Shown: positions 24,858 through 57,087 of the stretch, one piece after another
Layout of the letters: each line of letters opens with the position of its first letter
Position numbering within the stretch: position 1 is the first letter of the stretch
Assembly (NCBI GenBank): GCA_964645745.1
Contig: CAZXZW010000002.1
Span: 5,299 to 69,298 of the forward strand
From: an uncultured Bdellovibrio sp.
GTDB lineage: Bacteria > Bdellovibrionota > Bdellovibrionia > Bdellovibrionales > Bdellovibrionaceae
Length of the DNA: 64,000 bases
Direction of reading: 5' to 3'
Notes under the pieces: model-generated
What the model was told of the DNA's origin: nothing
Database searches by the model: none
The model's input: only the letters and a program-made list of their open reading frames with translations
Made by a program: the position numbers and the translations under genes

Positions 24858-25490
24858 TTACTTCATTCCACCCACGAAGCTTGTGTCCTTATTGGATCTC
24901 ATTTCTATTTCGGCCCAGAAGCGTCTTTGTGAAAAATCCTCAAAATATTCAGGATTTAATTTTAAAGGTCTGATAGTCCCACCAAATTCATTATGGCAAA
25001 TAATACCTACCAATTGATCGAGTTTAGAGTCTGCGCTTACAGTACCTAAAATGATTGTATTTTCAGAATGAGGTCCACATAAATTATTGAATTCTATATC
25101 GAGCTGCTGTTTGTTCTCAGGCGTAAGTATATTCAAAAAAGAGTGAGCTGTTAATGAAATGAACTTTTCATTTTTAAAAAATAGTGAGGCTTTATGTGCT
25201 CCTATATCGTAAATCTCATCTATTTGAAAAAGTTTTTTCTTTTCCACATAAGCCCAATAGAGCGTTTGATTTTTGATTGTTGCACAGTCTTCGCAAATTG
25301 ATTCGATTACTTTACAATAATGTGAATTTCCACAGGTTTCCACACAAATTTTATCATTAGCTGTACAAGATATAACAATACTTTTTTCTAGAACTTGACT
25401 ATCCGAAAAACCGACAACGCTCTCAAAATATGCTGCTTGAGAGTAGACAGTAGTAGAAATTAAAAGAATAAAGAGAATGAAATTTTTCAT
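24858..25490 (-). CDS. Secreted Cys-rich hypothetical protein (210 aa)
   Basis: Signal peptide MKNFILFILLISTTVYSQA, 8 Cys including the cluster SCTANDKICVETCGNSHYCKVIESICEDC. 1-nt overlap with the upstream gene. Confidence 0.65.
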   Translation of the reverse strand: MKNFILFILLISTTVYSQAAYFESVVGFSDSQVLEKSIVISCTANDKICVETCGNSHYCKVIESICEDCATIKNQTLYWAYVEKKKLFQIDEIYDIGAHKASLFFKNEKFISLTAHSFLNILTPENKQQLDIEFNNLCGPHSENTIILGTVSADSKLDQLVGIICHNEFGGTIRPLKLNPEYFEDFSQRRFWAEIEMRSNKDTSFVGGMK

Positions 25491-28015: not shown

Positions 28016-28136
28016 ATAAGCTATTATGCATACTGAAAGCCAAAGAATCGTTTCGCTTTGAAGCAGCTATATACGCTATGGTTAATTTAAAATAAGAGCT
28101 GTCATATCGCCGCCAAAAGAATAAAAGATCGACGTA

Positions 28137-29282
28137 CTATTTTGAGAAACCCCAACGTTTTGCGATTGTGTCATTAGGATTAGAAGAAATTGTTTGAGAA
28201 TTCCAATTGTTCACAAGTTCGCCTAAGGATCTTAGTTTACTATCAATTAAGAATTCATTCTCTGTCTGTGCCTGTGACCATTTCAGAACCATTTGACCTG
28301 CTATCTGATCATCTGAGCTGTATACATTTTGATTATTGTAAATTAATTCAGTAATTTGAATGATTAAAGCTTGTATGACGGCGTCTCTGGAATAAGTGCT
28401 GAAGTTGTAATAGCGCTCGCTATCAACTGCGCAAGTTGATTTTCTGCACTCTCTAGCTCCTGTTTCGACAGATTGAATACGCTCATCAATCCTTTGAGTT
28501 AAGTGTGAAATAATATGAATCAACTTACTGTTTGAATCTACAGGATGACCGATGAGTTTTGTTGTCACGAAGTCATCAAAATTCATCTTGAGTATATTAA
28601 ATTGTTCACTTTTGTCTGATTCAGAATATTGAGGATATGAAAATTCACTTTTTTCAAGTTTAGGCCATTTAAATTTATAAAAGCCTGATACGTATTTACT
28701 TGGCCATTTAGTTTTTGCAAACGGATACTCAAGAAGATCACGTACAATCCGAGGAGAAGTAGAAGACATTAAAGTTATAGGAGGGGAAAATCCATTTAGA
28801 TTAACATTAGAAACCCATTCTACATGGCTTGAATTCATATAAAGAATCCCGGGTTTAACAGTGCTCGCATTTATGCTAATGGGTTCAAGATCTTTCATGA
28901 GACTATTTGTGTTTGTTGAATTTTGTATCCAATCCAAAGCAGCCAAAAATCTTTGGTCTGAATTCCAAGACAATCCTTTTTCTATTTTGTTCCATTGAAA
29001 AGATAAATTACTAATTTTTGTTCCATTTGTTAGCGTAGCTAAAGCGGGTAGTTTGTTTTCATAAGCATAGATCCAACGAATAGCTATAGCTGCATCAGCA
29101 CAATCAGTTTTTAGCTTATGAATTCTAAAAAACGATGAATTAATGTTTTTTTTAACCCAATTCGAATATGCAGTTTCAGCTTGAACATCCCAATTTTTAT
29201 CAGAACTCCAAATTTGAGCATGAACTAAAATCGATGAAAAACAAATTAAAAAAAACAAATTAAAGTATTTCATTACTGACAA
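28137..29282 (-). CDS. Secreted hypothetical protein (381 aa), possible papain-like Cys/His fold
   Basis: Signal peptide ending VHAQ. KTDCADAAIAIRWIYA and, about 85 aa later, PGILYMNSSHVEWV resemble NlpC/P60-type Cys and His segments. This is speculative. Confidence 0.6.
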   Translation of the reverse strand: MSVMKYFNLFFLICFSSILVHAQIWSSDKNWDVQAETAYSNWVKKNINSSFFRIHKLKTDCADAAIAIRWIYAYENKLPALATLTNGTKISNLSFQWNKIEKGLSWNSDQRFLAALDWIQNSTNTNSLMKDLEPISINASTVKPGILYMNSSHVEWVSNVNLNGFSPPITLMSSTSPRIVRDLLEYPFAKTKWPSKYVSGFYKFKWPKLEKSEFSYPQYSESDKSEQFNILKMNFDDFVTTKLIGHPVDSNSKLIHIISHLTQRIDERIQSVETGARECRKSTCAVDSERYYNFSTYSRDAVIQALIIQITELIYNNQNVYSSDDQIAGQMVLKWSQAQTENEFLIDSKLRSLGELVNNWNSQTISSNPNDTIAKRWGFSK

Positions 29283-30829
29283 ACTTTTTTTGCAAAACTT
29301 ACTATGTTTAGTTGATAATTTTCAAACACAGGAGAAGATTTTTTTACACTTAATGGGATGATATTTTTATTCGTATCTATAGAAAACTTAATTTCTAGAC
29401 GAATAAATGATTTGTTTGTTCCAGAAAGTTTAAAACAGTTTAAGTTCTTTGAATCGCACACACGGTCATAATAGTTAGACCAGCTTTTTTTCATATTTTG
29501 AGCGTCACTGAATTCAATTATACCTTTTTGACCAAGACTTATTGTTGGAAGTGATGCTAGTTTTGATAATTGGCCTAGTTGACCTGCTTTAGGCAAAGAA
29601 GGAAGTCTTTCTTCGTCGTAGCTATTACTCACATCTAAGTTAGAATTCAAATTTAAGTAATCATCTGAAGAAGTTAGCTCATCCAAAGATGAGCGAGGTT
29701 CATAAAATTCAGCAACTAATGTCAACTCTTGATCTACTAGTAAGTCAGGATTGATTTCAAGAGCTCCCATAGATACACCGGATAAATTATTCTCAGTTCT
29801 GAACTCAGCGAGGCCAGTCCAATTTGAAGGTATTTTCAATGCATGAACCCAGCTTGATACAAGATTAGTTTTTTGAGTTTTAATATTATGATTGTATAAG
29901 CGCAATTTTCCAACAACAGGAGCAGAGTAAGATGAAGTTCTAGCACAAGTCCCGTCTTTACAGAATTCTTTAGCAAAGTTTTCGACTAAAAACGAAGGCT
30001 GTAATAAAGCTTTGTTTTTTCCACTTGGAATAAGATTTACAGAGCCAGGGCTAATGTTAGTCGTTATCGCGCTTACAAATAATGAGTCCTCGTTCGACTC
30101 TTTGATAGAGCGTGGCATGAAACCTTTAGCCGGAAGCAAAGTATGACGTACGTATCGCGCTCCGATTGGTGATTGAACTTTTAATTCCCCAGCCTCTACG
30201 CTAACAGGCCATAGTTTAATGACAGATTCATAATCAGCGGCTTGAATTTGATTTTCATTTAAGAATTGTGAATTGTAGCAATCAGGATTTATTTTTTGCT
30301 CTATATTTAATTTCGACATAGTATCAACAGCTATAAAGCATCCATTGCCATCAGTTACTACAGTCGAACCTTGTTCGTTTAAAGAAGTTATTTTACATTG
30401 TGATTTAGGATGTGTTTTTACTTTGAACCCACGGATATCAGAAATGATAAGTTGAACACATTGTTTTTGAAATTCGTTCTTTTCTGCTAGTAGTTTAGAA
30501 GATATTTGGTTATCAATTCTTTGAAAAGGAACTGATGTTTCAATACTGCAGTTAGATTTATTTTGAACTAAGTTACCAGAGATAGATTCTAATCGAGAAG
30601 TGTCATCTTGGTAGTAAATCGAGTTGAAATTAACTAAGATATATTTTTCATCAGAAGTACAACGCTCGATTCCGATCTGAGCGTTGTTTGTTTTCGAATT
30701 CATTTTAGTTGTTTTACTTGCTGGATCGATCACGAACTGAGTTTCTGTTAATGCTCTTGCAACTTCACAGGCCAATACTTGAGAACCTATTGCTGATACT
30801 AAAAGTCCGATTATTGCTGCTTTTAACAT
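29273..30829 (-). CDS. Secreted or lipoprotein-like hypothetical protein (518 aa)
   Basis: N-terminus MLKAAIIGLLVSAIGSQVLAC (signal or possible lipobox), 12 Cys, GAGGA RBS. 10-nt overlap with the downstream gene. Confidence 0.7.
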   Translation of the reverse strand: MLKAAIIGLLVSAIGSQVLACEVARALTETQFVIDPASKTTKMNSKTNNAQIGIERCTSDEKYILVNFNSIYYQDDTSRLESISGNLVQNKSNCSIETSVPFQRIDNQISSKLLAEKNEFQKQCVQLIISDIRGFKVKTHPKSQCKITSLNEQGSTVVTDGNGCFIAVDTMSKLNIEQKINPDCYNSQFLNENQIQAADYESVIKLWPVSVEAGELKVQSPIGARYVRHTLLPAKGFMPRSIKESNEDSLFVSAITTNISPGSVNLIPSGKNKALLQPSFLVENFAKEFCKDGTCARTSSYSAPVVGKLRLYNHNIKTQKTNLVSSWVHALKIPSNWTGLAEFRTENNLSGVSMGALEINPDLLVDQELTLVAEFYEPRSSLDELTSSDDYLNLNSNLDVSNSYDEERLPSLPKAGQLGQLSKLASLPTISLGQKGIIEFSDAQNMKKSWSNYYDRVCDSKNLNCFKLSGTNKSFIRLEIKFSIDTNKNIIPLSVKKSSPVFENYQLNIVSFAKKVCQ

Positions 30830-30855
30830 AAATTCCTCAGTTCGTTTATTTTAAA

Positions 30856-31911
30856 TTACTCTCTAGTTTCGTCGATAGCAGTGTATGTACACATTTCAGC
30901 ACCGCGACGAGTCCAGTCACGGAAGATTGAAGCTTTGTCTGCTCCACATTGAGCACCTTTAGTCTCAGTGAATACATATCTAATTTTGCAAAATCTTAAG
31001 TTAAGAGCTGAAGTGCTTAATAAGTCCATTGCATCACCAGTTAAACTTCTTAAATCAGACGAACGGAAGAAGCTTCCATTTTGTCCGCCAGTTGGAAGTC
31101 CATCAGCACCGATTACGAAGTCAGCTTCATTTTCAGAAGTGTTGTATACACCTGAAGAATTTGTAGCATTTTGTAATACGCCTTGACCTTGTAAATCACA
31201 CACAACATATGATTGAACTTTTACGCCAGCCATTTGTGTATAACGTTGTAATTCAGAGTTGTTCAACATGATTAAACCGTCACGATTGTTATCACCTTGT
31301 GTTTGTCCTACTGATAAAAAGTCAGTAGATCCCACATTATTTAAAATGCTGTAGTTAGCGCTAATTCCATTTTGAGTATATTCATGTTGAGGGGCACGGT
31401 AACAAATATCGACGAAGTATTGAGCTGTGTAGGCTTCAGAACCTAATTCAAATAATACATCTTCAACTTTTGTATCCATAGCTGCGCTGTTCGGAGCTAA
31501 CTGTTGAAACACACTTGGTTTTCCAGTCACTACCATGTTTGAACGTGGACCTTGAGCTTGAGAATGATCTGTCCAGCCGCGTTTACCAGCTGTTAAGTAA
31601 TTCATATAAGCTTCACCGTTTCCAGTTCCGCGGCTGATACATTTAATACGAGATCCGCAGTTTGTTGCAGTCGTAGCACATGACCCTGGACGATCTACAG
31701 GAGTTTTAGTTCCATCTGAATTTTCTTTATAACACACGTCACAATTAAGTGGAATTGTTCTTAATCCAGCGTTACAGGCATACATATCTGGACCAGATGA
31801 TGTGACCTTGAATTTAAATCGATACTCTAATGCGGAAGCGTTTTGAGCTAGCGGTAAAAGTACAGCTATTGTTGCAAATGCTTTTTTCAAATTTTTTACG
31901 ATCGTTTTCAT
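30856..31911 (-). CDS. Secreted Cys-rich hypothetical protein (351 aa), candidate major component
   Basis: Signal peptide ending AQNASA, about 11 Cys. It has the strongest RBS in the cluster (AGGAGA 6 nt before the ATG). A spot GC count is higher than for its neighbours. Confidence 0.7.
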   Translation of the reverse strand: MKTIVKNLKKAFATIAVLLPLAQNASALEYRFKFKVTSSGPDMYACNAGLRTIPLNCDVCYKENSDGTKTPVDRPGSCATTATNCGSRIKCISRGTGNGEAYMNYLTAGKRGWTDHSQAQGPRSNMVVTGKPSVFQQLAPNSAAMDTKVEDVLFELGSEAYTAQYFVDICYRAPQHEYTQNGISANYSILNNVGSTDFLSVGQTQGDNNRDGLIMLNNSELQRYTQMAGVKVQSYVVCDLQGQGVLQNATNSSGVYNTSENEADFVIGADGLPTGGQNGSFFRSSDLRSLTGDAMDLLSTSALNLRFCKIRYVFTETKGAQCGADKASIFRDWTRRGAEMCTYTAIDETRE

Positions 31912-32957: not shown

Positions 32958-33698
32958 TTATTTTTCCCACCAACCAAATGGTCCTGAAAGATGTAGATAG
33001 GAAAACGTTTTTGCATCAGAATTTTTATTCTTCATTCGCATGCTTGATAGTAGAGAATACTTTTTAAAAACTGTCTGCATCTCTGAAATATAGCTCCGTT
33101 GTTCTTCTGTAGTCAAAAAGAGCTCTTTAGCTGCACATTGCATCGAATCTTTAGGTGTGGAGCGATTAATACCATATTTAGTCATTTCCTTTTGGACTTT
33201 TTCAATAATTTTTTTTTTGTAGGTTTTTTCAAGCGGTCCATTTTCTATCCACTGAAAAGGAAAGTGTGCTAAGATTTTAATTTTATCATTCGGCCATAAT
33301 TCAATCAGCTGACATTTTTCGAGAGCTTTGATCGAACGATTGAGTTCGATTCTATTTATTTTTAACTCTGATTGAATGTTATCAAGATCAGTATTCATCA
33401 ACATCAGTCTAAAAACGAGAAAGTGCTGAAAATCTTTCGACAAAGTATTTTCTTGCTCTAAAGAAAACTCATAAACTTGAGCTGTTTGTTCTTTGGCTTG
33501 TTCAATCAATTCAAAAAAATCCACGCCGATACAGCGACTGATTTCGATAAGTTTTGATAGCGAAATATCATCACTATTTAAAATACGCTTAACCGAGGGA
33601 AGCGAAAGATTTAGTTTTTTCGCCAGCTGTTCATACTTAACACCCGAAGCTTTTAGACTATTTTTAATAGTGGTTTGAATTTGAGAAAGTTCATTCAT
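32958..33698 (-). CDS. XRE-type helix-turn-helix transcriptional regulator with an uncharacterised C-terminal domain
   Basis: N-terminal HTH (YEQLAKKLNLSLPSVKRILNSDDISLSKLIEISRCIGVDF). The ~170-aa C-terminal part has no recognised motif. Confidence 0.65.
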   Translation of the reverse strand: MNELSQIQTTIKNSLKASGVKYEQLAKKLNLSLPSVKRILNSDDISLSKLIEISRCIGVDFFELIEQAKEQTAQVYEFSLEQENTLSKDFQHFLVFRLMLMNTDLDNIQSELKINRIELNRSIKALEKCQLIELWPNDKIKILAHFPFQWIENGPLEKTYKKKIIEKVQKEMTKYGINRSTPKDSMQCAAKELFLTTEEQRSYISEMQTVFKKYSLLSSMRMKNKNSDAKTFSYLHLSGPFGWWEK

Positions 33699-33806
33699 AA
33701 CGATCCTTAAGGTATTGTAATTTAATACTACAAATAACGATATGCTTTATATTTGTCAAATATTGATACTTTTAAATAAGATGCTCTTTTAAACAAGGAG
33801 CATCCC

Positions 33807-34688
33807 ATGAGAGTCGTATTTTTAATTGTCAGTTTTGCACAGTTGGTTTTCGCCGCGACTGAGCCGGTTTTATTTCATTCTATCAACAGCTTTAATCACC
33901 CCGAAAGCGTTTTGGTTGAACAGAATACTTTATGGATTTCAGATATGGGCCAAAATCCTTCTGAAGTAGAAAATGCCGATGGGAATCTAGTTAAATATAA
34001 TTTATCCGGAGACCTTGATCAGACTTTTACTTTGAAGACAAAACTGAATTCGCCAATGGGTATGGCGATTATTAAAGATACGATTTACTTAGCAGATATT
34101 AATCGTGTCGTTGGTGTTAACAAAAATTCAGGAGAACTCGATCAAGTCTTTGATCTTTCATTTTCAAGCTCTGTGTTTTTAAATGATATCGTGGCTATCG
34201 AGGATCAATATCTTATCGTCACAGCGACTGACATTAAAAAAATATACTTAATATCTTTAAATCAAAACAAAGTCGAAGAGCTTAATATTGATTTTCATGG
34301 ATATACCCCTAATGGAGTATTCTATGAAAAACAAACTCATATTCTTTATTTTGCCTCAAATGAAAAACATGCCTTAGGTCAAGAGGGGAATGGGAAGGTT
34401 TCAAAGTATTTATTTGAAAATAAAAAGGCTACTTTCCAGCAGGAATTTTCCGTTGGCAAATTTCTTGATGGTGTCTTTGTTAAAGAAGATCAGATAGTCG
34501 TGTCGGACTGGCAATCTGCCGGTAATGACGGCAAGATTTATATCTTGGACAAATCAAGCATAGTCTTATCTCATGAATTCAGTCTTAAAACATCAGGTTT
34601 AGCTGATATGGATTACTCTGAGAAAAATAAAGTTTTAGTGACTCCTGATTTTATTCAAGGAATCGTTAGGCTTTACAAGTTTCAGTAA
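33807..34688 (+). CDS. Secreted hypothetical protein, possibly a beta-propeller
   Basis: Signal peptide MRVVFLIVSFAQLVFA. Repeated short beta-strand blocks (IYLADIN, YLIVTATD, LYFASNE, IVVSDWQ) suggest propeller blades. Confidence 0.45.
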   Translation: MRVVFLIVSFAQLVFAATEPVLFHSINSFNHPESVLVEQNTLWISDMGQNPSEVENADGNLVKYNLSGDLDQTFTLKTKLNSPMGMAIIKDTIYLADINRVVGVNKNSGELDQVFDLSFSSSVFLNDIVAIEDQYLIVTATDIKKIYLISLNQNKVEELNIDFHGYTPNGVFYEKQTHILYFASNEKHALGQEGNGKVSKYLFENKKATFQQEFSVGKFLDGVFVKEDQIVVSDWQSAGNDGKIYILDKSSIVLSHEFSLKTSGLADMDYSEKNKVLVTPDFIQGIVRLYKFQ

Positions 34689-34691
34689 GAT

Positions 34692-35186
34692 TCAGTGTTT
34701 AATGTTTGAGGCTTCTTCCTCTTTTGAAACTTTCATGACGTAGCTGACGAAATCAGGGTCTTCGCCGTGAAGCAATTCCGGAAGTAATTCACGGAAATCT
34801 TTGCGGCGGCACCAGATGCGAATATAGTCATCCCATGAAAGCCACATACGCGCGGTTTGTTTGTTCATGTCTTCTTCGTAGACTAAGATGAAGGCACGTT
34901 CAAACAGTGAAATGAGAATATCAAAAATAATTTTTTTACGTTCAATTTGTTCTTCAGTGAGATTTGTATTTGAAATCTCTTTTGAAGTTAATTGAAGGTC
35001 GGCATTTTCTAGTAACAATTTTGAAAACTCAACGTACTCTTCAGAAAGCTTTTGATAGATTTCTTCTTCTTCGTTTTGTCTTTCGCGTCTTTGTTCCCAG
35101 TAAAAGACACCAATAGCGAGCGGCAAACCGACAACGGTTACGACATAACTAGCAAGTTCCCAATTTTCAAGATTTAGAAATTCCAT
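34692..35186 (-). CDS. Hypothetical membrane-anchored protein (164 aa)
   Basis: One N-terminal TM segment (LASYVVTVVGLPLAIGVFYW), then an acidic helical domain. No motif recognised. Confidence 0.45.
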   Translation of the reverse strand: MEFLNLENWELASYVVTVVGLPLAIGVFYWEQRRERQNEEEEIYQKLSEEYVEFSKLLLENADLQLTSKEISNTNLTEEQIERKKIIFDILISLFERAFILVYEEDMNKQTARMWLSWDDYIRIWCRRKDFRELLPELLHGEDPDFVSYVMKVSKEEEASNIKH

Positions 35187-35306
35187 AAAGATATCTTAGT
35201 AATAAACCTAGGCCCGCGCCAAATTAAATCCGTGATCCGGTCTTAAATTGTTTTAAAGTGTCAATTTTGTACTGTGAATTAGGGATTTATTTTTGCTTTA
35301 AAGATT

Positions 35307-35831
35307 TTGATGGAAAAAATATCTTTAAGTGAAATTGAACAATGCATTTTTATTGTGAGGAAGCAGAAAGTGATGCTAGATGCGGATTTAGCCAAAATCT
35401 ACGGAGTTGAAACACGACAGCTCAATCAAGCAGTTAAAAGAAATATGCATCGGTTTCCTAGTGATTTTATGTTTAGGTTGAGTGTCGAAGAAACTGATTT
35501 TTTAAAATCTCGGATGGTAGATCTAAACTTGAGATCACAATTTGTGATCTCAAAAAAGCCCGGTGGTTCTAGGTACTTACCTCATGTTTTTACTGAACAC
35601 GGGGCTTTAATGCTAGCTAATATTCTTAATAGCGAAGCGGCCGCTGAAGCTAGTATTCAAGTTGTGCGTTCATTTGTTCGGTTGCGCGAAATGATTGTAT
35701 CGCATGCGGAACTTTCTCGAAAGTTATCGGAATTGGAAAAGAAATATGATTCGCAATTTAAAGTAGTGTTTGAAGCTATTCATAAATTGATGGTTATTCC
35801 CGAAGTTCCGAAAAAGAAAATCGGGATTTAG
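35307..35831 (+). CDS. ORF6N-domain DNA-binding protein (phage/mobile-element associated family)
   Basis: VRKQKVMLDADLAKIYGVETRQLNQAVKRNMHRFPSDFMFRLSVEE matches the ORF6N signature as I recall it. C-terminal coiled-coil tail. Confidence 0.75.
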   Translation: MMEKISLSEIEQCIFIVRKQKVMLDADLAKIYGVETRQLNQAVKRNMHRFPSDFMFRLSVEETDFLKSRMVDLNLRSQFVISKKPGGSRYLPHVFTEHGALMLANILNSEAAAEASIQVVRSFVRLREMIVSHAELSRKLSELEKKYDSQFKVVFEAIHKLMVIPEVPKKKIGI

Positions 35832-36457
35832 CTGAGGAGTTGAATATAATATTTTAAAACTGTGTCGTATTCTTTTTCGTCGCAAACAACGCGTTTCGCA
35901 TGGGCCTTTGATGGTTCAACAAATTGATCATGCATGGGTTTAACTTGGCGAAGAAATTGTTCTTTAACGCCTTCAGGTGTGCGACCACGCTCGCGAACAT
36001 CACGCTCTAATCTTCGACTGTAACGAAGATCTTCATGAGTATCAAAAAAGATAGCTTCATCAAATAATTCGCGTACTTCAGGAATATGTAAAATCAGAAT
36101 ACCATCTACGATAATAATCGGAGCTGGTTGAATCAGAAGTGTTTCTTTTTTTCTAGAGTGAGTTGCAAAATCATATGTAGGAATTTGGGTAGGCTTTCCC
36201 TCTTTGAGAATTCTCAGGTGTTTGGCTAAGAGAGAAAATTCAATTGAATCGGGGTGGTCAAAATTAACTGAACCACCATCGAAATCAAATCGCGAAGATT
36301 GATCAAAGTAAAAATTATCCTGCAACACTAAGGAAGTACGCTCGGTTCCTAAAGTTTTAACCAGATCCTGAGCAAAATATGTTTTACCTGAACCGGAACC
36401 GCCTGCGACGCCGATGATAGTAGGCTTATTTTGTTTGATAAAGCCTGTCACCAGCAT
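35828..36457 (-). CDS. udk: Uridine kinase
   Basis: P-loop IIGVAGGSGSGKT, QDNFY, DHPDSIEF and RRLERD motifs. Confidence 0.9.
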   Translation of the reverse strand: MLVTGFIKQNKPTIIGVAGGSGSGKTYFAQDLVKTLGTERTSLVLQDNFYFDQSSRFDFDGGSVNFDHPDSIEFSLLAKHLRILKEGKPTQIPTYDFATHSRKKETLLIQPAPIIIVDGILILHIPEVRELFDEAIFFDTHEDLRYSRRLERDVRERGRTPEGVKEQFLRQVKPMHDQFVEPSKAHAKRVVCDEKEYDTVLKYYIQLLS

Positions 36458-37064
36458 CTCCTAGGCCAGGCACTAAATAGCCTAGTTCGTTAATTTCAGT
36501 TTCAACACCTACTGTATGTAATTCCACGTCGGGGTGAAGATTATAAATTTTCTCCACAGCGAATTCACTGATGAGAATAGCTAGAACTTTAATTTTTTTA
36601 ACTTCGTATGATTTTAAACGATCAATCGAGGCAATAATCGTATCAGCTGTTGAAATCAAAGGATCACAAATGATTGCAGTTTTCCCTTTAATATCCACGG
36701 GCATTTTAAAGTAGTATTCCACAGTGTTATGCACGAATTTGTCTCGGTAAATACCGATAAACCCTGCTGATGCAAATGGAATCATAGATAAAACAGCATC
36801 AAGCATTCCGTTACCAGCACGCATGATAGATACAACCACTGGAGCGTTGACGATACGTTCAATCGTTGCTTTTGCAATCGGTGTTTGAATCGTTACTTTC
36901 TCCATGTCAGTCCAATCTTTCATGACTTCGTAAGCTAAAATACGACTGATCTCTTTTGTTAATTCGCGGAATTCGTGAGAGTAAGTTGTTTGATCACGTA
37001 AGTAGCCCAACTTATGTTTAAGTAAAGGGTGATCGTGAATGTGAATATTTGGTGTCTTTGCCAT
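36426..37064 (-). CDS. upp: Uracil phosphoribosyltransferase
   Basis: HPLLKHKLGYLR, SIMRAGNGM and a C-terminal YLVPGLGDAGDRLY. The PRPP loop reads CDPLISTADT rather than the DPMLATGGS I recall for E. coli Upp. Confidence 0.9.
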   Translation of the reverse strand: MAKTPNIHIHDHPLLKHKLGYLRDQTTYSHEFRELTKEISRILAYEVMKDWTDMEKVTIQTPIAKATIERIVNAPVVVSIMRAGNGMLDAVLSMIPFASAGFIGIYRDKFVHNTVEYYFKMPVDIKGKTAIICDPLISTADTIIASIDRLKSYEVKKIKVLAILISEFAVEKIYNLHPDVELHTVGVETEINELGYLVPGLGDAGDRLYQTK

Positions 37065-37092
37065 TTTGTATATCCTTCTAAAAATAAATTAA

Positions 37093-38283
37093 TTAAAAAA
37101 CTGTTCCGTCGCTGATGATTTGGAATGGAGGTCCGCCGCCTTTACGTTTCTCAGCTGCGATTTTTCTTCCGGCCCACCAAGTTCCACCTTCGAGGACTTT
37201 TGCCAAAGGAAATTCTTGAGCCGATTTGCCTAAATTCTTTTGTACAGCAGATCCAATCAAATCCAACATACAAACTGTTAGCGCACGCCATTCGATAATG
37301 AAATCTTCTTCTGGTTTCCAGGCTTTTTCTAAATCCGCAGGATTTTTAGCCGTGATTAAACCGAAATCTAAAATTAAACCACCATTGCGGTATTCAGCTA
37401 GGCCCGTTAATTTTTCTGCGCCTGAAACTTTAAGACCAGCTTCCATTAATGGTTCGACTAATGAATAAGTCATCCACTGAGAAAGTTTGTGGAAGGCAAT
37501 CAATTCGCCTGTGCCTTGGTGTTTCCATACATCACCAAGATTTACGCCATCTAAGTTAATACGTCCTGGCCAGATACTGCCTAAGCCATCAAGTACTGCG
37601 CGAAGTAATCCTTCGGCGGGAATATCGTTTCCATATCTAGTCATTAAATAATCAATGATGCTGCCTGGGCGCTTTTTAGGAAAGATCGTTGTGTTTTCCA
37701 CAGCAGATCCTAAATTTTTCAATAATGAAACACGTCCTGCAACACCGATCAATGGGTTTTCAGCAGTCACTTGGAAATAGTTTTCAACGGAGGCTTCTGT
37801 TAAATTTTTTAAACCTTGTGAGTCAGCTTGCATGGGTTTTGCGGAATCAGAGCTGAAGGCTCCTTTTATAAACATGTGAAAGCTTGCTACTCCTAAACCC
37901 TCTGAACGAGTAATGGTTTTGCCAGTTGAAGCTTCATTGTATTTCCAGGTTGGGCCCGAACCAGCATCAAGTAAAACGCTTGTGATGACTAGATCTAGTT
38001 TGCAACGCGCTTTTTCGATAGGATCAGCTGATTTTAAATTTTCATTTAAAGTCATTTCACGATTTACACCAGCTGCACGGAAATGTCCCCAGCGTGAATG
38101 GAAAGGAATATCAAGTGTTGGATAATTTTCTTTAATCACCGTTAAAACATAATCCACACATGGATTTAGTTTTTCCATATGAATATTGAAATAGCCTTTT
38201 CCTGATTGCGTGTAATCAAGAAGAAGCTTTGTGCGATCACGAATAGCTAAAGGAGATAAAAGGTAATCAATATTATTCTTCAA
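37093..38283 (-). CDS. DUF1688 family protein (URC4-like)
   Basis: 396 aa. Recalled family segments are present (VLLDAGSGPTWKY, FHKLSQWMTYSL). Context next to a URC1-like gene supports the call. Confidence 0.65.
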   Translation of the reverse strand: MKNNIDYLLSPLAIRDRTKLLLDYTQSGKGYFNIHMEKLNPCVDYVLTVIKENYPTLDIPFHSRWGHFRAAGVNREMTLNENLKSADPIEKARCKLDLVITSVLLDAGSGPTWKYNEASTGKTITRSEGLGVASFHMFIKGAFSSDSAKPMQADSQGLKNLTEASVENYFQVTAENPLIGVAGRVSLLKNLGSAVENTTIFPKKRPGSIIDYLMTRYGNDIPAEGLLRAVLDGLGSIWPGRINLDGVNLGDVWKHQGTGELIAFHKLSQWMTYSLVEPLMEAGLKVSGAEKLTGLAEYRNGGLILDFGLITAKNPADLEKAWKPEEDFIIEWRALTVCMLDLIGSAVQKNLGKSAQEFPLAKVLEGGTWWAGRKIAAEKRKGGGPPFQIISDGTVF

Positions 38284-39535
38284 TTTTACGTCCTTTGATA
38301 TTTTTTAATTCTTCCGCGGTTAAAGCCCCATCTTGATGGAAGTATCCAGCGGCTTTTTTAGCTTCCATTTCTACTGAAGCATCACCAGGGATAAGTCCTT
38401 CTGGAATTGAAATACGATTCACGACTTCGATGCCACTTTTAACGATGGCTTCGTATTTCATGTTACTCATTGAATGAAGATTATGAATTTTTTGAATACC
38501 GAAGAATTGAAGAATGTCTGGCATAAATTCTTGGAAGCGAGCATCTTCAACACCGGCTACACATTCTGTGCGACGGAAATAAGTGGCCGCTGTGTCTCCA
38601 CCTTCTTGACGTTTACGAGCATTGTAAACCAAAAATTTTGTTACTTCGCCCAGAGCGCGGCCTTCTTTGCGGTAGTAAGCGATAAAGCCGACTCCACCAC
38701 GTTGAGCCGTGCGAACAGCATCTTCGATTCCGTACATCAAATAAGGACGGCAAGTACAGATGTCAGATCCGAATACGTCTGAACCATTACATTCATCATG
38801 AACACGGCAAGTTAATTCAATTTCAGGTTTTGCTAAGTGTTTTGCATCGCCGAAAATATAAACTGTCGTACTACCGATAGGTGGTAACCAAGTTTTTAAA
38901 TCACGACGAGTAATAAGTTCTGCGTACATACCGCCAGTTTCTTGGAATAAGATACGGCGAAGATCACCTTCATCAACATTCAAGCGCTGTGCAATTCCCG
39001 GTAAATACCAAACAGGATCCATAGCAACTTTAGTCACTTTGATATCTTTGTTTTCACGAATGATTTTTCCATCGATTTTCAAGCGACCCGCATTGATAGC
39101 GTCTTGGAGTTCAGGAATTTGTAAGTGGGCTTGCGTCACTGAAATAGAAGGGCGGATATCTAATCCTTGATCGTACAAACTTTTAAAATGAATTTGTGGA
39201 TCTAATCCCCAAGGATCGATGCTCACCATTTTTGTAGGATCGTGCCATTGAGGGTAAGGACCAATTTCTACTGGGCTTTGTGTATTGTGTAAATCTGGCT
39301 TATGCGTTGGAGAGAATTTTCCAGCTGCCATTGAAAGTGCGCGATATACAGAATAACTTCCACTGTGAGTTCCGATCGCATTACGAGCTTTCGCATTTGT
39401 TAATGAAGCCACGACCGGTCCACGCTCTAAAGGATCTTTAGCGCCCCAGTTGATTGGTAGTGATTCTTTGTATTTTAGATTTGTGTGTGAAGCTAAAATA
39501 ACATGATTGGATCTATTTTTTGGATCTAGTTTCAT
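38273..39535 (-). CDS. GTP cyclohydrolase II-like protein with a long N-terminal extension (URC1-like)
   Basis: The C-terminal half carries the RibA-type zinc/active-site pattern RVHDECNGSDVFGSDICTCRPYL, YYRKEGRALG and DARFQ. The extra ~230-aa N-terminal domain is typical of URC1 rather than RibA. Confidence 0.8.
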   Translation of the reverse strand: MKLDPKNRSNHVILASHTNLKYKESLPINWGAKDPLERGPVVASLTNAKARNAIGTHSGSYSVYRALSMAAGKFSPTHKPDLHNTQSPVEIGPYPQWHDPTKMVSIDPWGLDPQIHFKSLYDQGLDIRPSISVTQAHLQIPELQDAINAGRLKIDGKIIRENKDIKVTKVAMDPVWYLPGIAQRLNVDEGDLRRILFQETGGMYAELITRRDLKTWLPPIGSTTVYIFGDAKHLAKPEIELTCRVHDECNGSDVFGSDICTCRPYLMYGIEDAVRTAQRGGVGFIAYYRKEGRALGEVTKFLVYNARKRQEGGDTAATYFRRTECVAGVEDARFQEFMPDILQFFGIQKIHNLHSMSNMKYEAIVKSGIEVVNRISIPEGLIPGDASVEMEAKKAAGYFHQDGALTAEELKNIKGRKIEE

Positions 39536-39572
39536 AATTTCCTCTGTGTATTCTTTTCTATTCTAAAATTAA

Positions 39573-41057
39573 TTAAGACATCCAACCTGAGTCGGTTTGT
39601 TTTTCCCATTTCACAGTCACTTTTTTCATGTTTGACCAGAAATCAAGAGAGTGAGCCCCGGTGATATCACCGTGACCATATTTGGAAGCGTTAATTCCAC
39701 CGAAAGAGAATGGCTCACGCGGAACAGGAACGCCAATATTAACGCCGACCATTCCTGTTGAAGCTTCGCGAATCACGCGCTCTGCAAAAGCTCCACTTGA
39801 AGTAAAGATACTGCAAGCATTTCCATATTCGACTGAATTTTCAATTTTGATCGCTTCTGTTAAATCTTTAACGCGTACGATACTTAATACGGGACCGAAT
39901 AATTCTGTCGTTGCAGCATCGCTACCAGGCTTAACATTATCTAAGATAGTTGGACCAATCCAGTTGCCTTCTTCTAATCCCGCAGGAGCTTTAGCTTTGC
40001 GACCATCCAGAAGAATTGTGGCTCCTTCCCTTGAAGCTTTATCGATCATAGTACTTAAGAAGTTCACTTGATCACGTGTGATGATGGCTCCCATCGTATC
40101 ACCTAAAATCATAGAGCTTGCGCGCTCTTTAATTTTATCGATGTGTTGATTAATTTTAGGATCATTGCCAACAGCCAAAACTACGGCTGCGGCCATACAA
40201 CGTTGACCTGCACAACCTGTGAATGAATCAGAAATACCAGAACCACTGATATCAGAATTTGCGTCTGGTAAAAGAATAATATGATTTTTAGCTCCGCCCA
40301 ATGCAAGAACGCGTTTACCTAAACGAGTTCCACGATCATAAACCATGCGAGCAATTTTTGTCGAACCGACAAAGCCGATCGCTTTAATCAGAGAATGATC
40401 AATCAAAGCTTCAACCGTGGGTGCTCCGCCATGAAGAACAGTCATTAAACCTTTTGGAAGACCGGCTTCTTTTAAAGCGTCAGCAATAGCAATGGCTGTT
40501 AAAGGAGTTTTCTCAGAAGGTTTCCACACATAAGCATTTCCTAGAGCTAAGTTGATTGGAATCGTCCACATCGGAACCATAGCTGGAAAATTAAATGGAG
40601 TGATATTTAAAATAACACCTAATGGTTCACGACGGTATTCACAACTGACGCCACGAGATACTTCCATGCGTCCACCGATATCTAAGTTTTGTAATGAAAG
40701 GGCGTATTCTAAAACTTCGATACCTTTCATTAATCCAGCTTTACCTTCTTCAAAAGTTTTTCCAGATTCAGAAGCTTTTAAATGAGAAATTTTATCTAAG
40801 TCGCGCATTAAAATATTACGGAAATTAAAAAGAACACGTGCACGATCTTTCATAGAAACGGCAGCCCAGTCTTTTTGAGCTACAGCAGCGGCTTTGATAG
40901 CTGTATCAATTTGTTCTTGATCAGGTGTTGTCACTTCACCAATCACTTGTTGGTTGTAAGGACTACGTACAGTAAAGTTTCCTGCGCGGCCCGGAATCCA
41001 TTCTCCGTTGATCATACAATTGGCGGCTATTTTTTGTGTTGGTACTTGAGCTTTCAT
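39573..41057 (-). CDS. mmsA: CoA-acylating (methyl)malonate-semialdehyde dehydrogenase
   Basis: Aldehyde dehydrogenase fold with WKPSEKTP, ALGGAKNH and the MMSDH-type catalytic segment FTGCAGQRCMA. Confidence 0.85.
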   Translation of the reverse strand: MKAQVPTQKIAANCMINGEWIPGRAGNFTVRSPYNQQVIGEVTTPDQEQIDTAIKAAAVAQKDWAAVSMKDRARVLFNFRNILMRDLDKISHLKASESGKTFEEGKAGLMKGIEVLEYALSLQNLDIGGRMEVSRGVSCEYRREPLGVILNITPFNFPAMVPMWTIPINLALGNAYVWKPSEKTPLTAIAIADALKEAGLPKGLMTVLHGGAPTVEALIDHSLIKAIGFVGSTKIARMVYDRGTRLGKRVLALGGAKNHIILLPDANSDISGSGISDSFTGCAGQRCMAAAVVLAVGNDPKINQHIDKIKERASSMILGDTMGAIITRDQVNFLSTMIDKASREGATILLDGRKAKAPAGLEEGNWIGPTILDNVKPGSDAATTELFGPVLSIVRVKDLTEAIKIENSVEYGNACSIFTSSGAFAERVIREASTGMVGVNIGVPVPREPFSFGGINASKYGHGDITGAHSLDFWSNMKKVTVKWEKQTDSGWMS

Positions 41058-41168
41058 AAGCTTCTCCTATTTAAAAAACTGAATAGAAAAGTCTAGATTT
41101 TTAACTCTCATTTGTGAAGACGGCACGCATTAAAGTAGGCTTAAAATAGATGATGAAAGTGGGGCAAA

Positions 41169-41618
41169 ATGGGCTTTTTATTTATATTACTTTTTCCGAC
41201 TTTATTATGGGCTGAAAAACCTGCTAAAAAAGAGATTCCATTGTGGATTTGCGACGGCTTTGTCAAAGGTTACGACGAATCAGTACCAGTAGATCAAGAT
41301 CGCTTTAAAACCTTAAAGACATTTAAACTTGAAGAGTCATTTAAAAATACGAATACAGTCGCTACTCAGTTTTCAGTAGAAAATCACGAATTTGCAGTAA
41401 GTTTTGTTTTTAATGCTAAAGGCCGATCATCCATGTTTGATGAAAAGATAGAATCTGAAGGCGTGAGCATGTCTGTGTCTGTTAATGGCAAAGGCTTTGG
41501 CGGAAGTAGTTTTCAAGTTATGGACGGAGCCGTTTTACCTAAAATGATTGGATTACGTACTGATTTAGAATATGACAAAAAAGATTATTACGTGCGAATG
41601 ATCTGTAAAAAGAAATAA
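41169..41618 (+). CDS. Secreted hypothetical protein (149 aa)
   Basis: Signal peptide MGFLFILLFPTLLWA. No motif recognised. Confidence 0.5.
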   Translation: MGFLFILLFPTLLWAEKPAKKEIPLWICDGFVKGYDESVPVDQDRFKTLKTFKLEESFKNTNTVATQFSVENHEFAVSFVFNAKGRSSMFDEKIESEGVSMSVSVNGKGFGGSSFQVMDGAVLPKMIGLRTDLEYDKKDYYVRMICKKK

Positions 41619-41623
41619 AAAAT

Positions 41624-42550
41624 ATGACACGCATTTATCAAGAAATTGAAACATTCCTGGAGTCCAAACAAAAATTGATCGATCTAGGGCACCAAGTTGA
41701 AACCCTTGATGGGCATGGCTTTGCGATCTGCGGAAATAAATCAGACCGTTTAGATTTATTAATTACAGGCTTGATGCATGGTAATGAAGTGATCGGAATC
41801 GAAGTGATTAATCGAATTATTAGTTATTTTATCAAAAATAAAGAAATTAATATTAATCTAGGATTATTGCTTTGTAATTTAGAAGCAGCTAAGCAAGACG
41901 TACGATTTATTGAAAGTGATTTGAATCGAAGTTTTTCAGTAGCTGAAGTTAAAACGCTTGAACACCGCCGAGCTGTAGAAATTGCAAAAATAGTCGATCA
42001 AGCTGATTTTGTTTTTGATCTTCATCAAACAGTTGAGCCTTCGTTAACGCCATTTTTTGTGATTGAACACAATCACGAATTGATTCAAATCGCGAATCAA
42101 TTATTACCGCAGTTTCCAGTTGTCACTTTTGGGGCCGGAGGTTTTTCTAAATCAGGAAAAACGATGTTAGAGTATTCTTCTTCAAAAAAAATCAAAGCGA
42201 TGGTTATAGAATGTGGACAAAAAGGTTTTTCCATGGAGCTTTCCGAAAAAGTGGCTGAGGGCTGTTTAGAATTGGTAAAAACTTTAAAAACAACAGAGAT
42301 AAAAAAACCAAAAGACATTTCTGTACTACACCTAGTAAATTCGATTACCAACATGGGAAATACACATTTAGTTCCGGGTTTAGTCAGTTACTTACCAATT
42401 AAACAAGGACAAGTTTTAGCTCACGAAGGAGTGATAGAAATTAAGGCCCCTTTTGACGGCCGCTTAATTTTCCCAAGTTATGGAGAAAAAGCTCGGACGA
42501 ATCACGAGCTTTGTAATTTGGGTCGAATTATTAATTATACAGATATTTAG
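41624..42550 (+). CDS. Succinylglutamate desuccinylase/aspartoacylase (AstE/AspA) family zinc hydrolase
   Basis: LLITGLMHGNEVIG (HxxE zinc site), DLNRSF, DLHQT. Confidence 0.75.
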   Translation: MTRIYQEIETFLESKQKLIDLGHQVETLDGHGFAICGNKSDRLDLLITGLMHGNEVIGIEVINRIISYFIKNKEININLGLLLCNLEAAKQDVRFIESDLNRSFSVAEVKTLEHRRAVEIAKIVDQADFVFDLHQTVEPSLTPFFVIEHNHELIQIANQLLPQFPVVTFGAGGFSKSGKTMLEYSSSKKIKAMVIECGQKGFSMELSEKVAEGCLELVKTLKTTEIKKPKDISVLHLVNSITNMGNTHLVPGLVSYLPIKQGQVLAHEGVIEIKAPFDGRLIFPSYGEKARTNHELCNLGRIINYTDI

Positions 42551-44083
42551 TTACGGTTCTTCTGGAGCTTCTAAAATACTTTGCGTATTTCTTTGAATAA
42601 CCATGATACCGGGGCCCGAAGACGGCGCTCCTGGAATAGCGTAATCACGAGGAGAAAGAGCCGTTAAGACACCTGTAATTTTATTCACAGAGAAGGCGCT
42701 GACTGAGGCTGGATTTCTTGAATTACAAGTGTACGCATAATTTCCTGTCGTATCGATACGAACATCGTTAGGTCCTCCGCCAGTATCAACATTAGATACG
42801 CGATTCAATCCACCAGTTGTTTGATCAATAGAGTATGTTACGATTTTTTTCGGATCTCCTGCCGCTGTAGAGAAGGCTGTTCCGTATAAAAACAGTCCAT
42901 CATCAGAGACAGTTGAAGCTGATCCTCCGTTATCATTAAACGGAGTCGGCGAGTTATTCGCAATGGGAGCTTCCACTGGAGTTAATGATCCTGATGTTTG
43001 ATCGATCGACCAAACTGAGATCTTGTGGATGTTCACTAAACCCATGTAAAGCCATTTACCATTCGGGTGAATTGAAATTCCATCTCCTGGGTTTGAAGTG
43101 TCTCCACCTAGTGTATTGATAAAAGGAGTTCCAGGAATTGAAGTTAAGAAACCTGTTGTGGGATCAATTGTGAATGCGGCCACACCGCCATTTCCACCCA
43201 TAGCAGCTGCGTATAAAAAGCGTCCATCAGAACTAATAACAACTCCGTTGATGGTTGAAGCGCCAGTCGTAGGGAAAGTAGCTGGCATCGTAGTAAGAGT
43301 TCCGTTATTTGCGACGTAAAATCCAGTGATGTCATTTGTTGTTTGGTTGGTGACGTAAACATAACGACCACTTGGATGGAAGAAAAGTCCATTTGGTGAT
43401 CCACCGCCTGAAGAAATGGGTGCACCTAGCGAAACTAATTTTCCTGTTTCAGGTGTAATAGAAAATGCAGAAACAGTTCCGGTAGAAACGTTGGCTGCGT
43501 AAATGTATTTATTATTTGGATGGATCACTACGCCGTATGTTCCGACATGACCAGCAATCGAGAAAGGACTACCGACGATATTCAACAACGCTCCGGTTGT
43601 GGGATGTTGAGCATAGCCGTAAACTTTTCCTGGATTTTCTTGCGAGCCTAAATATAAAAATGAAGCGTAAGAAAATTGAAGTGTTGTAGGATCTGTTACA
43701 GATTCATCTAAAACGGAAGCTTTTCCGTCGAAGTTAACTACTTTGATATCGTAAACACCATTTTGTCCTGGTCCCACGACACATGAAATTTTTTCGAAAT
43801 CGTCGCTAATCACCGTTTCTAAACATGGATAGTTTCCGACGTAAACTTTTGCTTTTTTGAAAAAATTTTTCCCAGTGACTTCTAAAGGACAGCCACCAGA
43901 AATACTGCAATAAAAAGCTCCGCCATTATTAACTTTGATGGTTTTAACAATCGCTTGCGGCAAATCGCCTGGAGCGAAACTTTCTTCAGTTGACTCATTG
44001 CCTGCACAATTCGAGATAAGCAAAACTGAACTCATTAGTCCACTGACTAAAAGCAGTTTCTTTAGTTTTTTTTGTAAAGTCAT
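42551..44083 (-). CDS. Exported protein: IPT/TIG-like domain plus lactonase-type 7-bladed beta-propeller
   Basis: Signal/lipoprotein-like N-terminus (LLISNCAG). An N-terminal Ig-like segment (CPLEVTGKNF ... YDIKVVNFDG). Repeated blades of the form HPNGKYIY / DGRFLY ... V(S/A)AF(S/T)I(D/T)P.TG.L. Confidence 0.65.
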   Translation of the reverse strand: MTLQKKLKKLLLVSGLMSSVLLISNCAGNESTEESFAPGDLPQAIVKTIKVNNGGAFYCSISGGCPLEVTGKNFFKKAKVYVGNYPCLETVISDDFEKISCVVGPGQNGVYDIKVVNFDGKASVLDESVTDPTTLQFSYASFLYLGSQENPGKVYGYAQHPTTGALLNIVGSPFSIAGHVGTYGVVIHPNNKYIYAANVSTGTVSAFSITPETGKLVSLGAPISSGGGSPNGLFFHPSGRYVYVTNQTTNDITGFYVANNGTLTTMPATFPTTGASTINGVVISSDGRFLYAAAMGGNGGVAAFTIDPTTGFLTSIPGTPFINTLGGDTSNPGDGISIHPNGKWLYMGLVNIHKISVWSIDQTSGSLTPVEAPIANNSPTPFNDNGGSASTVSDDGLFLYGTAFSTAAGDPKKIVTYSIDQTTGGLNRVSNVDTGGGPNDVRIDTTGNYAYTCNSRNPASVSAFSVNKITGVLTALSPRDYAIPGAPSSGPGIMVIQRNTQSILEAPEEP

Positions 44084-56681: not shown

Positions 56682-56708
56682 AATCGCCCTCGATCTGATT
56701 TAAAATAA

Positions 56709-56806
56709 GGGCCAGGCGATCCATATCGCATAGCTCGTTAAACACCGTTGCTTCCTTCCGGACCTAGCGGATTCAGTAACAAGTCTATCGTATGGGACCT
56801 GGCCAC
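56709..56806 (-). ncRNA. ffs: Signal recognition particle RNA (small 4.5S type)
   Basis: The minus strand contains the universal domain IV core AGGTCCGGAAGGAAGCAAC (GGAA tetraloop). It is closed by the terminal helix GGCCAGG ... CCTGGCC. The element lies directly upstream of dnaX, a common location. Ends are approximate. Confidence 0.75.
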
Positions 56807-57087
56807 TTGTTGGTGTACTTGATTCAGTGAAATGTATCAAGTAAATGCCATGCTTGGCCCAGTGAAACAGGCCCTGGATGCTTATTTAAAGGCCAAATCT
56901 CCTGTTACAAGGCTGATAGGTGTAAAGATCGTAGACAGGAAATCACGTATCACTCTGAGACACTCTGAAATCGAAAATCCCTAGAACGAAATTAGACCAC
57001 TTTAAGCCTTCGAGAAACAGTTGGACCGGCTTTTGAAATAGAAAGCCTTGTATAGAAGTTTAAGAAAATTAAATTAATGGAGGCTTT

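Follow-up and report, generated by a model that had tools for sequence, protein, structure and literature searches.

A URC-type pyrimidine catabolic operon of Bdellovibrionota with a probable role in carbon recovery

A stretch of 64,000 nucleotides (nt) from an uncultured Bdellovibrio sp. (contig CAZXZW010000002.1; the whole stretch is called the window below) carries five co-oriented genes at positions 35828-41057 of the minus strand, whose products match the enzymes of the URC route of uracil catabolism. We consider it probable that these genes form one transcription unit and that they encode a carbon-harvesting version of the URC pathway, in a bacterium of the phylum Bdellovibrionota and, to judge by its closest relatives, of the family Pseudobdellovibrionaceae. 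A sequence-only reading of the same DNA had proposed a bacterial URC-type pyrimidine catabolic operon at this place, and the proposal is upheld by profile hidden Markov model (HMM), structural and comparative-genomic tests. Four routes of pyrimidine-ring degradation are known, and to our knowledge URC is the one understood least.

The core of the arrangement is known and widespread: clustering of the genes for URC1, URC4 and uracil phosphoribosyltransferase (UPRT) in bacteria has already been reported, according to a passage of PMC3869809 that cites Andersen 2008. The extension of this trio by mmsA and udk is a variant of the Bdellovibrionota type. No description of a URC operon from Bdellovibrionota was found in the literature searched, which did not cover Andersen 2008 and Zhang 2021, and either of these might already show clusters that contain mmsA or udk.

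The five genes and their products

Read 5' to 3' along the operon, the first gene (39573-41057, 494 aa) encodes an mmsA-like malonate/methylmalonate-semialdehyde dehydrogenase (MSDH) of the type that acylates coenzyme A (CoA). It is followed by the genes for a URC1/UrcA-type cyclohydrolase, probably a uridine triphosphate (UTP) cyclohydrolase (38273-39535, 420 aa), for a URC4/urg3 protein of the DUF1688 family (37093-38283, 396 aa, with a TTG start), for the UPRT Upp (36426-37064, 212 aa) and, as the last gene of the operon, for the uridine/cytidine kinase Udk (35828-36457, 209 aa). All five are present on the minus strand where the sequence-only reading had placed them. The successive junctions are a gap of 37 nt, an overlap of 11 nt, a gap of 28 nt and an overlap of 32 nt, and the two overlaps, between URC1 and DUF1688 and between upp and udk, have the lengths originally read. 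Those operon starts that do not overlap a preceding gene are preceded by Shine-Dalgarno-like motifs. For the DUF1688 gene, the TTG start agrees with the N-termini of close homologs, and the 11-nt overlap between URC1 and URC4 recurs in independent gene calls of two distant relatives (L085, L087). For all five proteins the closest relatives, 74-97% identical, come from metagenome-assembled genomes labelled Pseudobdellovibrionaceae or Bdellovibrio (L001-L003).

Families were assigned by searches of Pfam and NCBIfam profiles against their curated cutoffs. The cyclohydrolase combines a GTP_CH_N domain (PF12471, E=1.6e-81, residues 10-199) with a GTP cyclohydrolase II domain (PF00925 GTP_cyclohydro2, E=1.2e-14, residues 228-375) and matches NF005536 with 714 bits at a cutoff of 403. 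The URC1-like character and the long N-terminal extension, both recognized from the sequence at the outset, are borne out by these profiles. The HMM scores contradict a place among bona fide RibA proteins, since both RibA models stay far under their cutoffs (NF001591, 57.3 bits against 148; TIGR00505, 47.2 bits against 205.85); E. coli RibA itself (2BZ0) matches with 36 bits only. Over residues 4-419 the protein scores 559 bits against PDB entries 7EJ3 and 7EEV, to which it is 62-63% identical and which are titled 'UTP cyclohydrolase' (7EEV, 2021; 7EJ3, 2022). These titles were retrieved via Foldseek, and a poor structure model of URC1 (pLDDT 58) served solely for fetching them. The existence of so similar a solved bacterial homolog speaks against the earlier statement that the chemistry of the URC1 step is poorly defined. 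Because of the title of this homolog, UTP is the probable substrate of ring opening, rather than uridine monophosphate (UMP), and housekeeping UMP and nucleoside-diphosphate (NDP) kinases are therefore implied. The earlier notion of a UMP-entry route holds insofar as UMP is the point of entry, and gives way insofar as the ring is probably opened only at the level of UTP.

Five residues of the cyclohydrolase, C249/C260/C262, Y304 and R333, align with C54/C65/C67, Y105 and R128 of E. coli RibA and are invariant among 22 homologs. From the RibA literature we take the three cysteines to be the zinc ligands and Y105 and R128 to be catalytic; their conservation in URC1 would be in line with a nucleoside-triphosphate substrate. 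The study of UTP cyclohydrolase that corresponds to 7EEV/7EJ3 (Zhang et al., ACS Catal 2021) is referenced for the URC pathway in a passage of PMC12507026. In public annotation all named URC1 homologs carry the label 'GTP cyclohydrolase II', a systematic mis- or under-annotation. The label hides the pathway in every Bdellovibrionota genome.

The 396-aa protein matches DUF1688 (PF07958) over its full length, with residues 7-396 on profile positions 1-420 at E=5.5e-143, and the corresponding family claim of the sequence-only reading stands; homologs of DUF1688 bear the NCBI name 'URC4/urg3 family protein'. One cluster of URC4 proteins (P0078) is publicly labelled 'uracil phosphoribosyltransferase'. 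A sequence search of the PDB gave no solved structure for URC4. An AlphaFold2 model built with 25 homologs is of high quality by its own scores (pLDDT 91.3, pTM 0.88), and a Foldseek search of the PDB with this model returned eleven significant matches, all of them Qng1/DUF2419 (E 1e-8 to 5e-7, probability 1.0, TM 0.58-0.72), with the next match at E=1.4. The Qng1 structures include the bacterial and the human enzyme, both apo and bound to queuosine-5'-monophosphate.

Qng1 is a metal-independent N-glycosylase with the helix-hairpin-helix (HhH) fold of DNA glycosylases and a preference for a 5'-monophosphate substrate, and it is inactivated by a C-terminal tag, its free C-terminus being needed (PMC9881137); DUF1688 and URC4 go unmentioned in that paper. 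The C-terminal SDGTVF of URC4 (37093-37110 of the window) is invariant to the final residue in the Bdellovibrionota, Alpha- and Betaproteobacteria and Actinomycetota sampled, a suggestive parallel to the free C-terminus of Qng1. In yeast, URC4 converts ribosylurea to urea (PMC7530994). Together, the Qng1-like fold, the invariant C-terminus and the role of yeast URC4 make the cleavage of ribosylurea-5'-phosphate the most economical proposal for URC4, and the model suggests that the protein splits this compound into urea and ribose-5-phosphate. The fold would in this way narrow the role of URC4 to one specific reaction. The two enzymes share the HhH-glycosylase fold, Qng1 acting on a ribonucleoside 5'-monophosphate, but they lack detectable sequence similarity, URC4 is about 75 residues longer, and the leaving group proposed for URC4 is urea where that of Qng1 is queuine. 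The likeness speaks to how URC4 probably works and not to family membership.

Upp is a UPRTase by Pfam (E=1e-58) and exceeds the cutoffs of both NF001097 (224.9 bits, cutoff 114) and TIGR01091 (210.3 bits, cutoff 208.35); against the Bacillus caldolyticus UPRT 1I5E it scores 189 bits. The motifs RAG, YRD and GYxVPGLGDAGDR are conserved, and RAG, YRD and the C-terminal GYLVPGLGDAGDRLY align with 1I5E, 1V9S and 1O5O. The loop that binds the 5-phosphate of 5-phosphoribosyl 1-diphosphate (PRPP) reads ICDPLISTADT, in contrast to the DPMLATGGS or DPMLATGVS of solved UPRTs; the second Gly of the loop is variable, since the T. maritima UPRT has DPMLATGVS. Every Bdellovibrionota-type copy has DPL[IV][SA]T[AS]DT, whereas URC-linked Upps of other phyla have the usual DPMLATG[HN][ST]. 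The unusual loop noticed at the outset (DPLISTADT) is real: by sequence comparison it is a conserved, clade-specific variant of the 5-phosphate loop in an otherwise apparently normal UPRT, all other motifs of which are canonical. Udk belongs to the PRK family (E=7e-39) and scores 220.6 bits with NF004018 (cutoff 180) and 188.6 bits with TIGR00235, below the cutoff of 220.3; its P-loop GGSGSGKT is visible in the sequence.

The product of mmsA matches Aldedh at E=8e-123, and all ten of the PDB sequences found at E<=1e-60 are MSDH/ALDH6A1, among them human ALDH6A1 and B. subtilis 1T90, with scores of up to 345 bits. It has GAKNH (255-259) in the position of ELGGKS, the general-base motif of hydrolytic aldehyde dehydrogenases (ALDHs), and GQRCMA with Arg286-Cys287. 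From the MSDH literature we assume that GAKNH and GQRCMA, with its Arg beside the catalytic Cys, make up an MSDH-type active site.

Conservation of the gene order

How general is this arrangement? One genome per GTDB species was scanned, and the best 80 DUF1688 loci, all of them from Bdellovibrionota, include Bdellovibrio bacteriovorus, Pseudobdellovibrio, Bacteriovorax and Peredibacter. Further loci of the Bdellovibrionota type (L085-L088) come from an assembly labelled Oligoflexia or Cryobacterium and from an unplaced lineage. A profile search aimed at other phyla gave mostly Bdellovibrionota; other phyla were sampled by a metagenome scan. The other lineages are represented by 84 loci, namely replicons of Azospirillum, Cupriavidus, Gordonia and Pseudoroseomonas and 80 metagenomic loci (median guanine-cytosine (GC) content 68%). 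A locus was counted as informative if it had enough sequence upstream for mmsA, or downstream for udk, to be judged.

Across the best 80 Bdellovibrionota loci the order mmsA-URC1-URC4-upp-udk is essentially invariant, with median junction distances of 11, 10, 13 and -32 nt. In informative loci of this phylum mmsA adjoins URC1 (64 of 66) and udk follows upp (70 of 71), and a projected overlap of upp and udk is present in 72 of 75 loci. Of the 83 Bdellovibrionota-type loci with URC4, 78 have a called URC1 gene and 80 a called upp gene; three of the four further loci (L085, L087 and L088) carry all five genes, and L086 breaks off after URC4. Among the best 80 loci, no gene family of the flanks is common to more than nine. 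Since gene order and short junctions are kept and the flanks are not shared, the five genes behave as one unit under selection. The case for mmsA, originally one of guilt by association at a single locus, becomes much stronger, as the gene travels with the URC core through variable surroundings. It is the first genomic link found between the URC core and an enzyme for the predicted C3 product, and it supports malonate semialdehyde as the intermediate in bacteria and acetyl-CoA as its fate.

The core trio is kept in the same order in other lineages, where 47 of 48 informative loci have URC1 and 58 of 64 have upp, but mmsA is adjacent in none of 37 and udk in none of 57. The accessories that recur there, BMP-type nucleoside ABC transporters, Amidohydro_3 and a phosphorylase-like protein, all fit pyrimidine or nucleoside utilisation. 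On the megaplasmid of Cupriavidus metallidurans CH34 (L082, 11051-13080), URC1-URC4-upp is followed by a RutR-like TetR gene (TetR_C_3/YcdC-like) and by an Amidohydro_3 gene whose family recurs in 13 loci outside Bdellovibrionota; this stretch carries no annotation in the PLSDB table.

Two further gene associations were seen in individual loci. In seven Bdellovibrionota loci, genes for a CDA-fold deaminase and for xanthine dehydrogenase (xdhA, xdhB, xdhC) stand directly after udk on the same strand (L057, 3221-3706; L064, 12986-14434; L058, 14425-17522; and four more), a supportive context that puts purine catabolism beside the URC operon. In L085 (4187-4969), which belongs to the assembly labelled Oligoflexia or Cryobacterium, mmsA has a divergently oriented Ribonuclease T2 gene beside it, which may indicate a connection of the operon with RNA breakdown.

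Leader region and chromosomal surroundings

Upstream of mmsA lies a leader and divergent intergenic region of 111 nt (41058-41168, minus strand) with the Shine-Dalgarno sequence AGGAG. It contains a weak sigma-70-like site, TTCACA-17-TAGACT, at 41118-41090, and the number of promoter-like sites found (14) compares with 16.3 expected; the scan for promoters and terminators gave no signals above chance. Rfam has no match in the operon or the leader, no 8-mer is conserved upstream of mmsA across 63 sequences, and no adjacent regulator is conserved in the best 80 Bdellovibrionota loci. A regulatory assignment of 41058-41168 would accordingly be a weak one.

On the downstream side of the operon (32958-35831) the window encodes an HTH_3 protein and an ORF6N-domain protein, types that mobile elements often carry. 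The ORF6N gene and udk are convergent, their 3' ends overlapping by 4 nt with no terminator-like site between them, and in the relative L002 the HTH_3 and ORF6N genes lie about 1 kb further from the operon. On the other side, an open reading frame (ORF) of 149 aa without a Pfam match and a gene for an AstE/AspA-like deacylase of 308 aa (41169-42550, plus strand) stand between mmsA and a lactonase-like gene (42551-44083). These two look like a local insertion, because the lactonase-like gene directly precedes mmsA in L001, the closest relative.

The remainder of the window is ordinary chromosome, with obg, nadD/rsfS, nadE, sucC, mdh, dnaX, nadA and genes for cysteine and methionine enzymes; the other scanned ORFs either lack a Pfam match or are housekeeping genes. 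Four consecutive ORFs without a Pfam match (841, 381, 518 and 351 aa) occupy 25490-31911 on the minus strand. This stretch has the lowest GC in the window (0.31-0.34, compared with about 0.38 elsewhere) and may be a lineage-specific or acquired block. The gene for the signal recognition particle (SRP) RNA (56706-56811, minus strand), directly upstream of dnaX (54948-56681), is matched solely by 'Bacteroidales_small_SRP', at 55.3 against a gathering threshold of 55.2, a best model that one would not expect in a Bdellovibrionota genome. An ORF of 577 aa that had been suspected to encode urease alpha was rejected as such; it is DnaX.

Proposed pathway and its purpose

What could these enzymes accomplish together? 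By their family assignments, Udk would convert uridine, and Upp uracil and PRPP, to UMP, which UMP kinase and NDP kinase encoded outside the operon would raise to UTP. The URC1-type enzyme, a presumably zinc-dependent relative of GTP cyclohydrolase II, would then open the ring of UTP hydrolytically with loss of pyrophosphate, as its homology to a characterised enzyme suggests. The end products in yeast and the name of the homolog point to a ring-opened ribotide of the ureidoacrylate type, which would yield malonate semialdehyde and ribosylurea-5'-phosphate. URC4, going by its fold and the reported role of the yeast protein, would cut the N-glycosidic bond of the latter to give urea and ribose-5-phosphate, and MSDH, by family assignment and conserved linkage, would turn malonate semialdehyde, CoA and NAD+ into acetyl-CoA, CO2 and NADH. 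The net result would be the recovery of pyrimidine ring carbons and ribose for energy and biosynthesis, with urea as a probable by-product, excreted or handled elsewhere.

In the yeast Lachancea kluyveri, URC8 reduces the C3 unit, which leaves the cell as 3-hydroxypropionate. The pathway of this yeast is said, in work attributed to Andersen et al. in 2008 and Rasmussen et al. in 2014, to comprise URC1, URC4, the UPRT URC6, the urea amidolyase URC3,5, URC8 and URC2. The operon shares with it orthologous URC1 (GTP_CH_N with GCH-II), URC4 (DUF1688) and UPRT, the entry through UMP, and end products that derive from a C3 unit and from ribosylurea and urea (PMC7530994). The yeast genes, however, are mostly unlinked, serve nitrogen acquisition and include a urea amidolyase and a Zn-finger regulator, whereas in Bdellovibrionota the genes form one operon with uridine kinase built in, the C3 unit is predicted to pass to acetyl-CoA via the acylating MSDH, and neither a urea enzyme nor a regulator is linked here. 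Since a carbon-capturing enzyme is linked and a urea-degrading enzyme is not, the operon would serve the recovery of carbon and ribose, not of nitrogen, and so reverse what is found in yeast.

Other systems resemble it in part. The orthologous genes of S. pombe, urg1 (GCH-II-like), urg2 (UPRT-like) and urg3 (DUF1688), are clustered and strongly induced by uracil (PMC2174524, PMC3869809), but this is a eukaryotic cluster and not an operon, and it has no MSDH or uridine kinase. Two alternative bacterial routes, Rut (rutABCDEFG of E. coli) and the reductive pyrimidine pathway with its coupled malonate-semialdehyde dehydrogenase, likewise release C4-C6 of uracil at the level of malonate semialdehyde, and a RutR-like regulator adjoins the URC core of Cupriavidus as a feature shared with Rut. 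The reductive route of Bacillus megaterium also ends in acetyl-CoA via an acylating MSDH. Both pathways differ from the operon in taking the free base as substrate and in their chemistry, that of the flavin monooxygenase RutA or of dihydropyrimidine dehydrogenase, enzymes that are absent from the operon.

Going beyond the single locus, we propose tentatively, and with somewhat more doubt than conviction, a phylum-wide, self-contained 'carbon-harvest' URC operon that burns prey uridine and uracil via UTP, with acetyl-CoA, ribose-5-phosphate and waste urea as products, and in which the long-orphan protein URC4 is a Qng1-like HhH N-glycosylase specific for ribosylurea-5'-phosphate. Several observations weigh against a reading of this kind. 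All pathway steps after UMP are predictions. The activity proposed for URC4 is read from its similarity of fold to Qng1; K266 and E297-Y298, which have a spacing similar to the Lys199/Asp231 pair of Qng1, would be no more than a guess at the equivalents. Pfam gives no match for URC4 beyond DUF1688 even at E<=10 and no link to Q_salvage. The mmsA product falls slightly short of its best NCBIfam model, the CoA-acylating methylmalonate-semialdehyde dehydrogenase TIGR01722 (440.1 bits, cutoff 448.5); with the next best ALDH model at 268 bits, the narrow miss points to no other family. Among the Pfam-scanned ORFs of the window and the conserved neighbours in any locus there is no urease or urea amidolyase (URC3,5), and no C3 reductase (URC8) or regulator (URC2) appears among the same ORFs and neighbours. 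With no regulator, riboswitch or conserved operator found, responsiveness to uracil is unsupported here. Surplus bases of prey RNA are reportedly released by B. bacteriovorus as free bases, in work of the 1970s said to be by Hespell and co-workers, which would argue against a large catabolic flux. Finally, L018 (8691-11850) is the sole Bdellovibrionota-type locus that has the core trio only, without mmsA and udk. Its flanks are unrelated, with VIT1, trypsin-like proteases and, further downstream, AstA/AstD.

The strongest competitor keeps the enzymes and changes their purpose: the pathway would scavenge nitrogen as in yeast, urea would be the valued product, hydrolysed by a urease or urea amidolyase with its gene elsewhere, and MmsA would only clear reactive malonate semialdehyde. 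L. kluyveri grows on uracil as sole nitrogen source and degrades the urea by URC3,5 (PMC7530994), and our inspection covered the 64 kb of the window and flanks of about 10 kb in relatives, so that urea genes could lie elsewhere. Yet genes for urea handling are linked to the operon in none of the 84 Bdellovibrionota-type and 84 other loci, the genes that are linked in this phylum encode a carbon-capturing enzyme and a nucleoside kinase, and, from what is generally known of the group, feeders on whole prey would not be expected to be limited by nitrogen. We regard nitrogen scavenging as unlikely.

Less plausible again, and in our view quite improbable, is a module for degrading or sanitising pyrimidine nucleotides that are modified, damaged or surplus, such as 5-methyl-UTP or other non-canonical UTP analogues that arise from prey RNA turnover, and not bulk uracil. 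A 5-methyl substrate would give methylmalonate semialdehyde, which the MSDH family also handles; PDB entry names show that the family acts on both semialdehydes, and the clade-specific loop of Upp could reflect an altered specificity. The solved URC1 homolog, though, is named for UTP, the fungal orthologs respond to uracil itself and degrade it, and the uracil-binding C-terminal motif of Upp is canonical. Mere coincidence of a RibA-like riboflavin enzyme, salvage upp and udk, an mmsA for valine or beta-alanine and an unrelated DUF1688 gene, which could appeal to the public label of URC1 homologs and to the classical salvage role of Upp and Udk, is hardly credible and was rejected together with the RibA assignment on HMM scores and synteny: the RibA models reach 47-57 bits against 714 for NF005536, the identity to the UTP cyclohydrolase structure is 62-63%, the five-gene order and tight junctions are kept across two to three classes while the flanks are not, and the URC1-URC4-upp trio persists in other phyla.

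Recovery of carbon and ribose through a URC pathway thus remains the reading we prefer for the five genes. If the wider proposal is true, DUF1688 would gain a function and a mechanism and would become a second family of nucleotide N-glycosylases on the DNA-glycosylase fold, and the physiological logic of the yeast pathway would be inverted, from nitrogen to carbon. The operon suggests a way in which predatory bacteria might draw on the large stock of pyrimidine nucleotides in their prey to regain energy and ribose.

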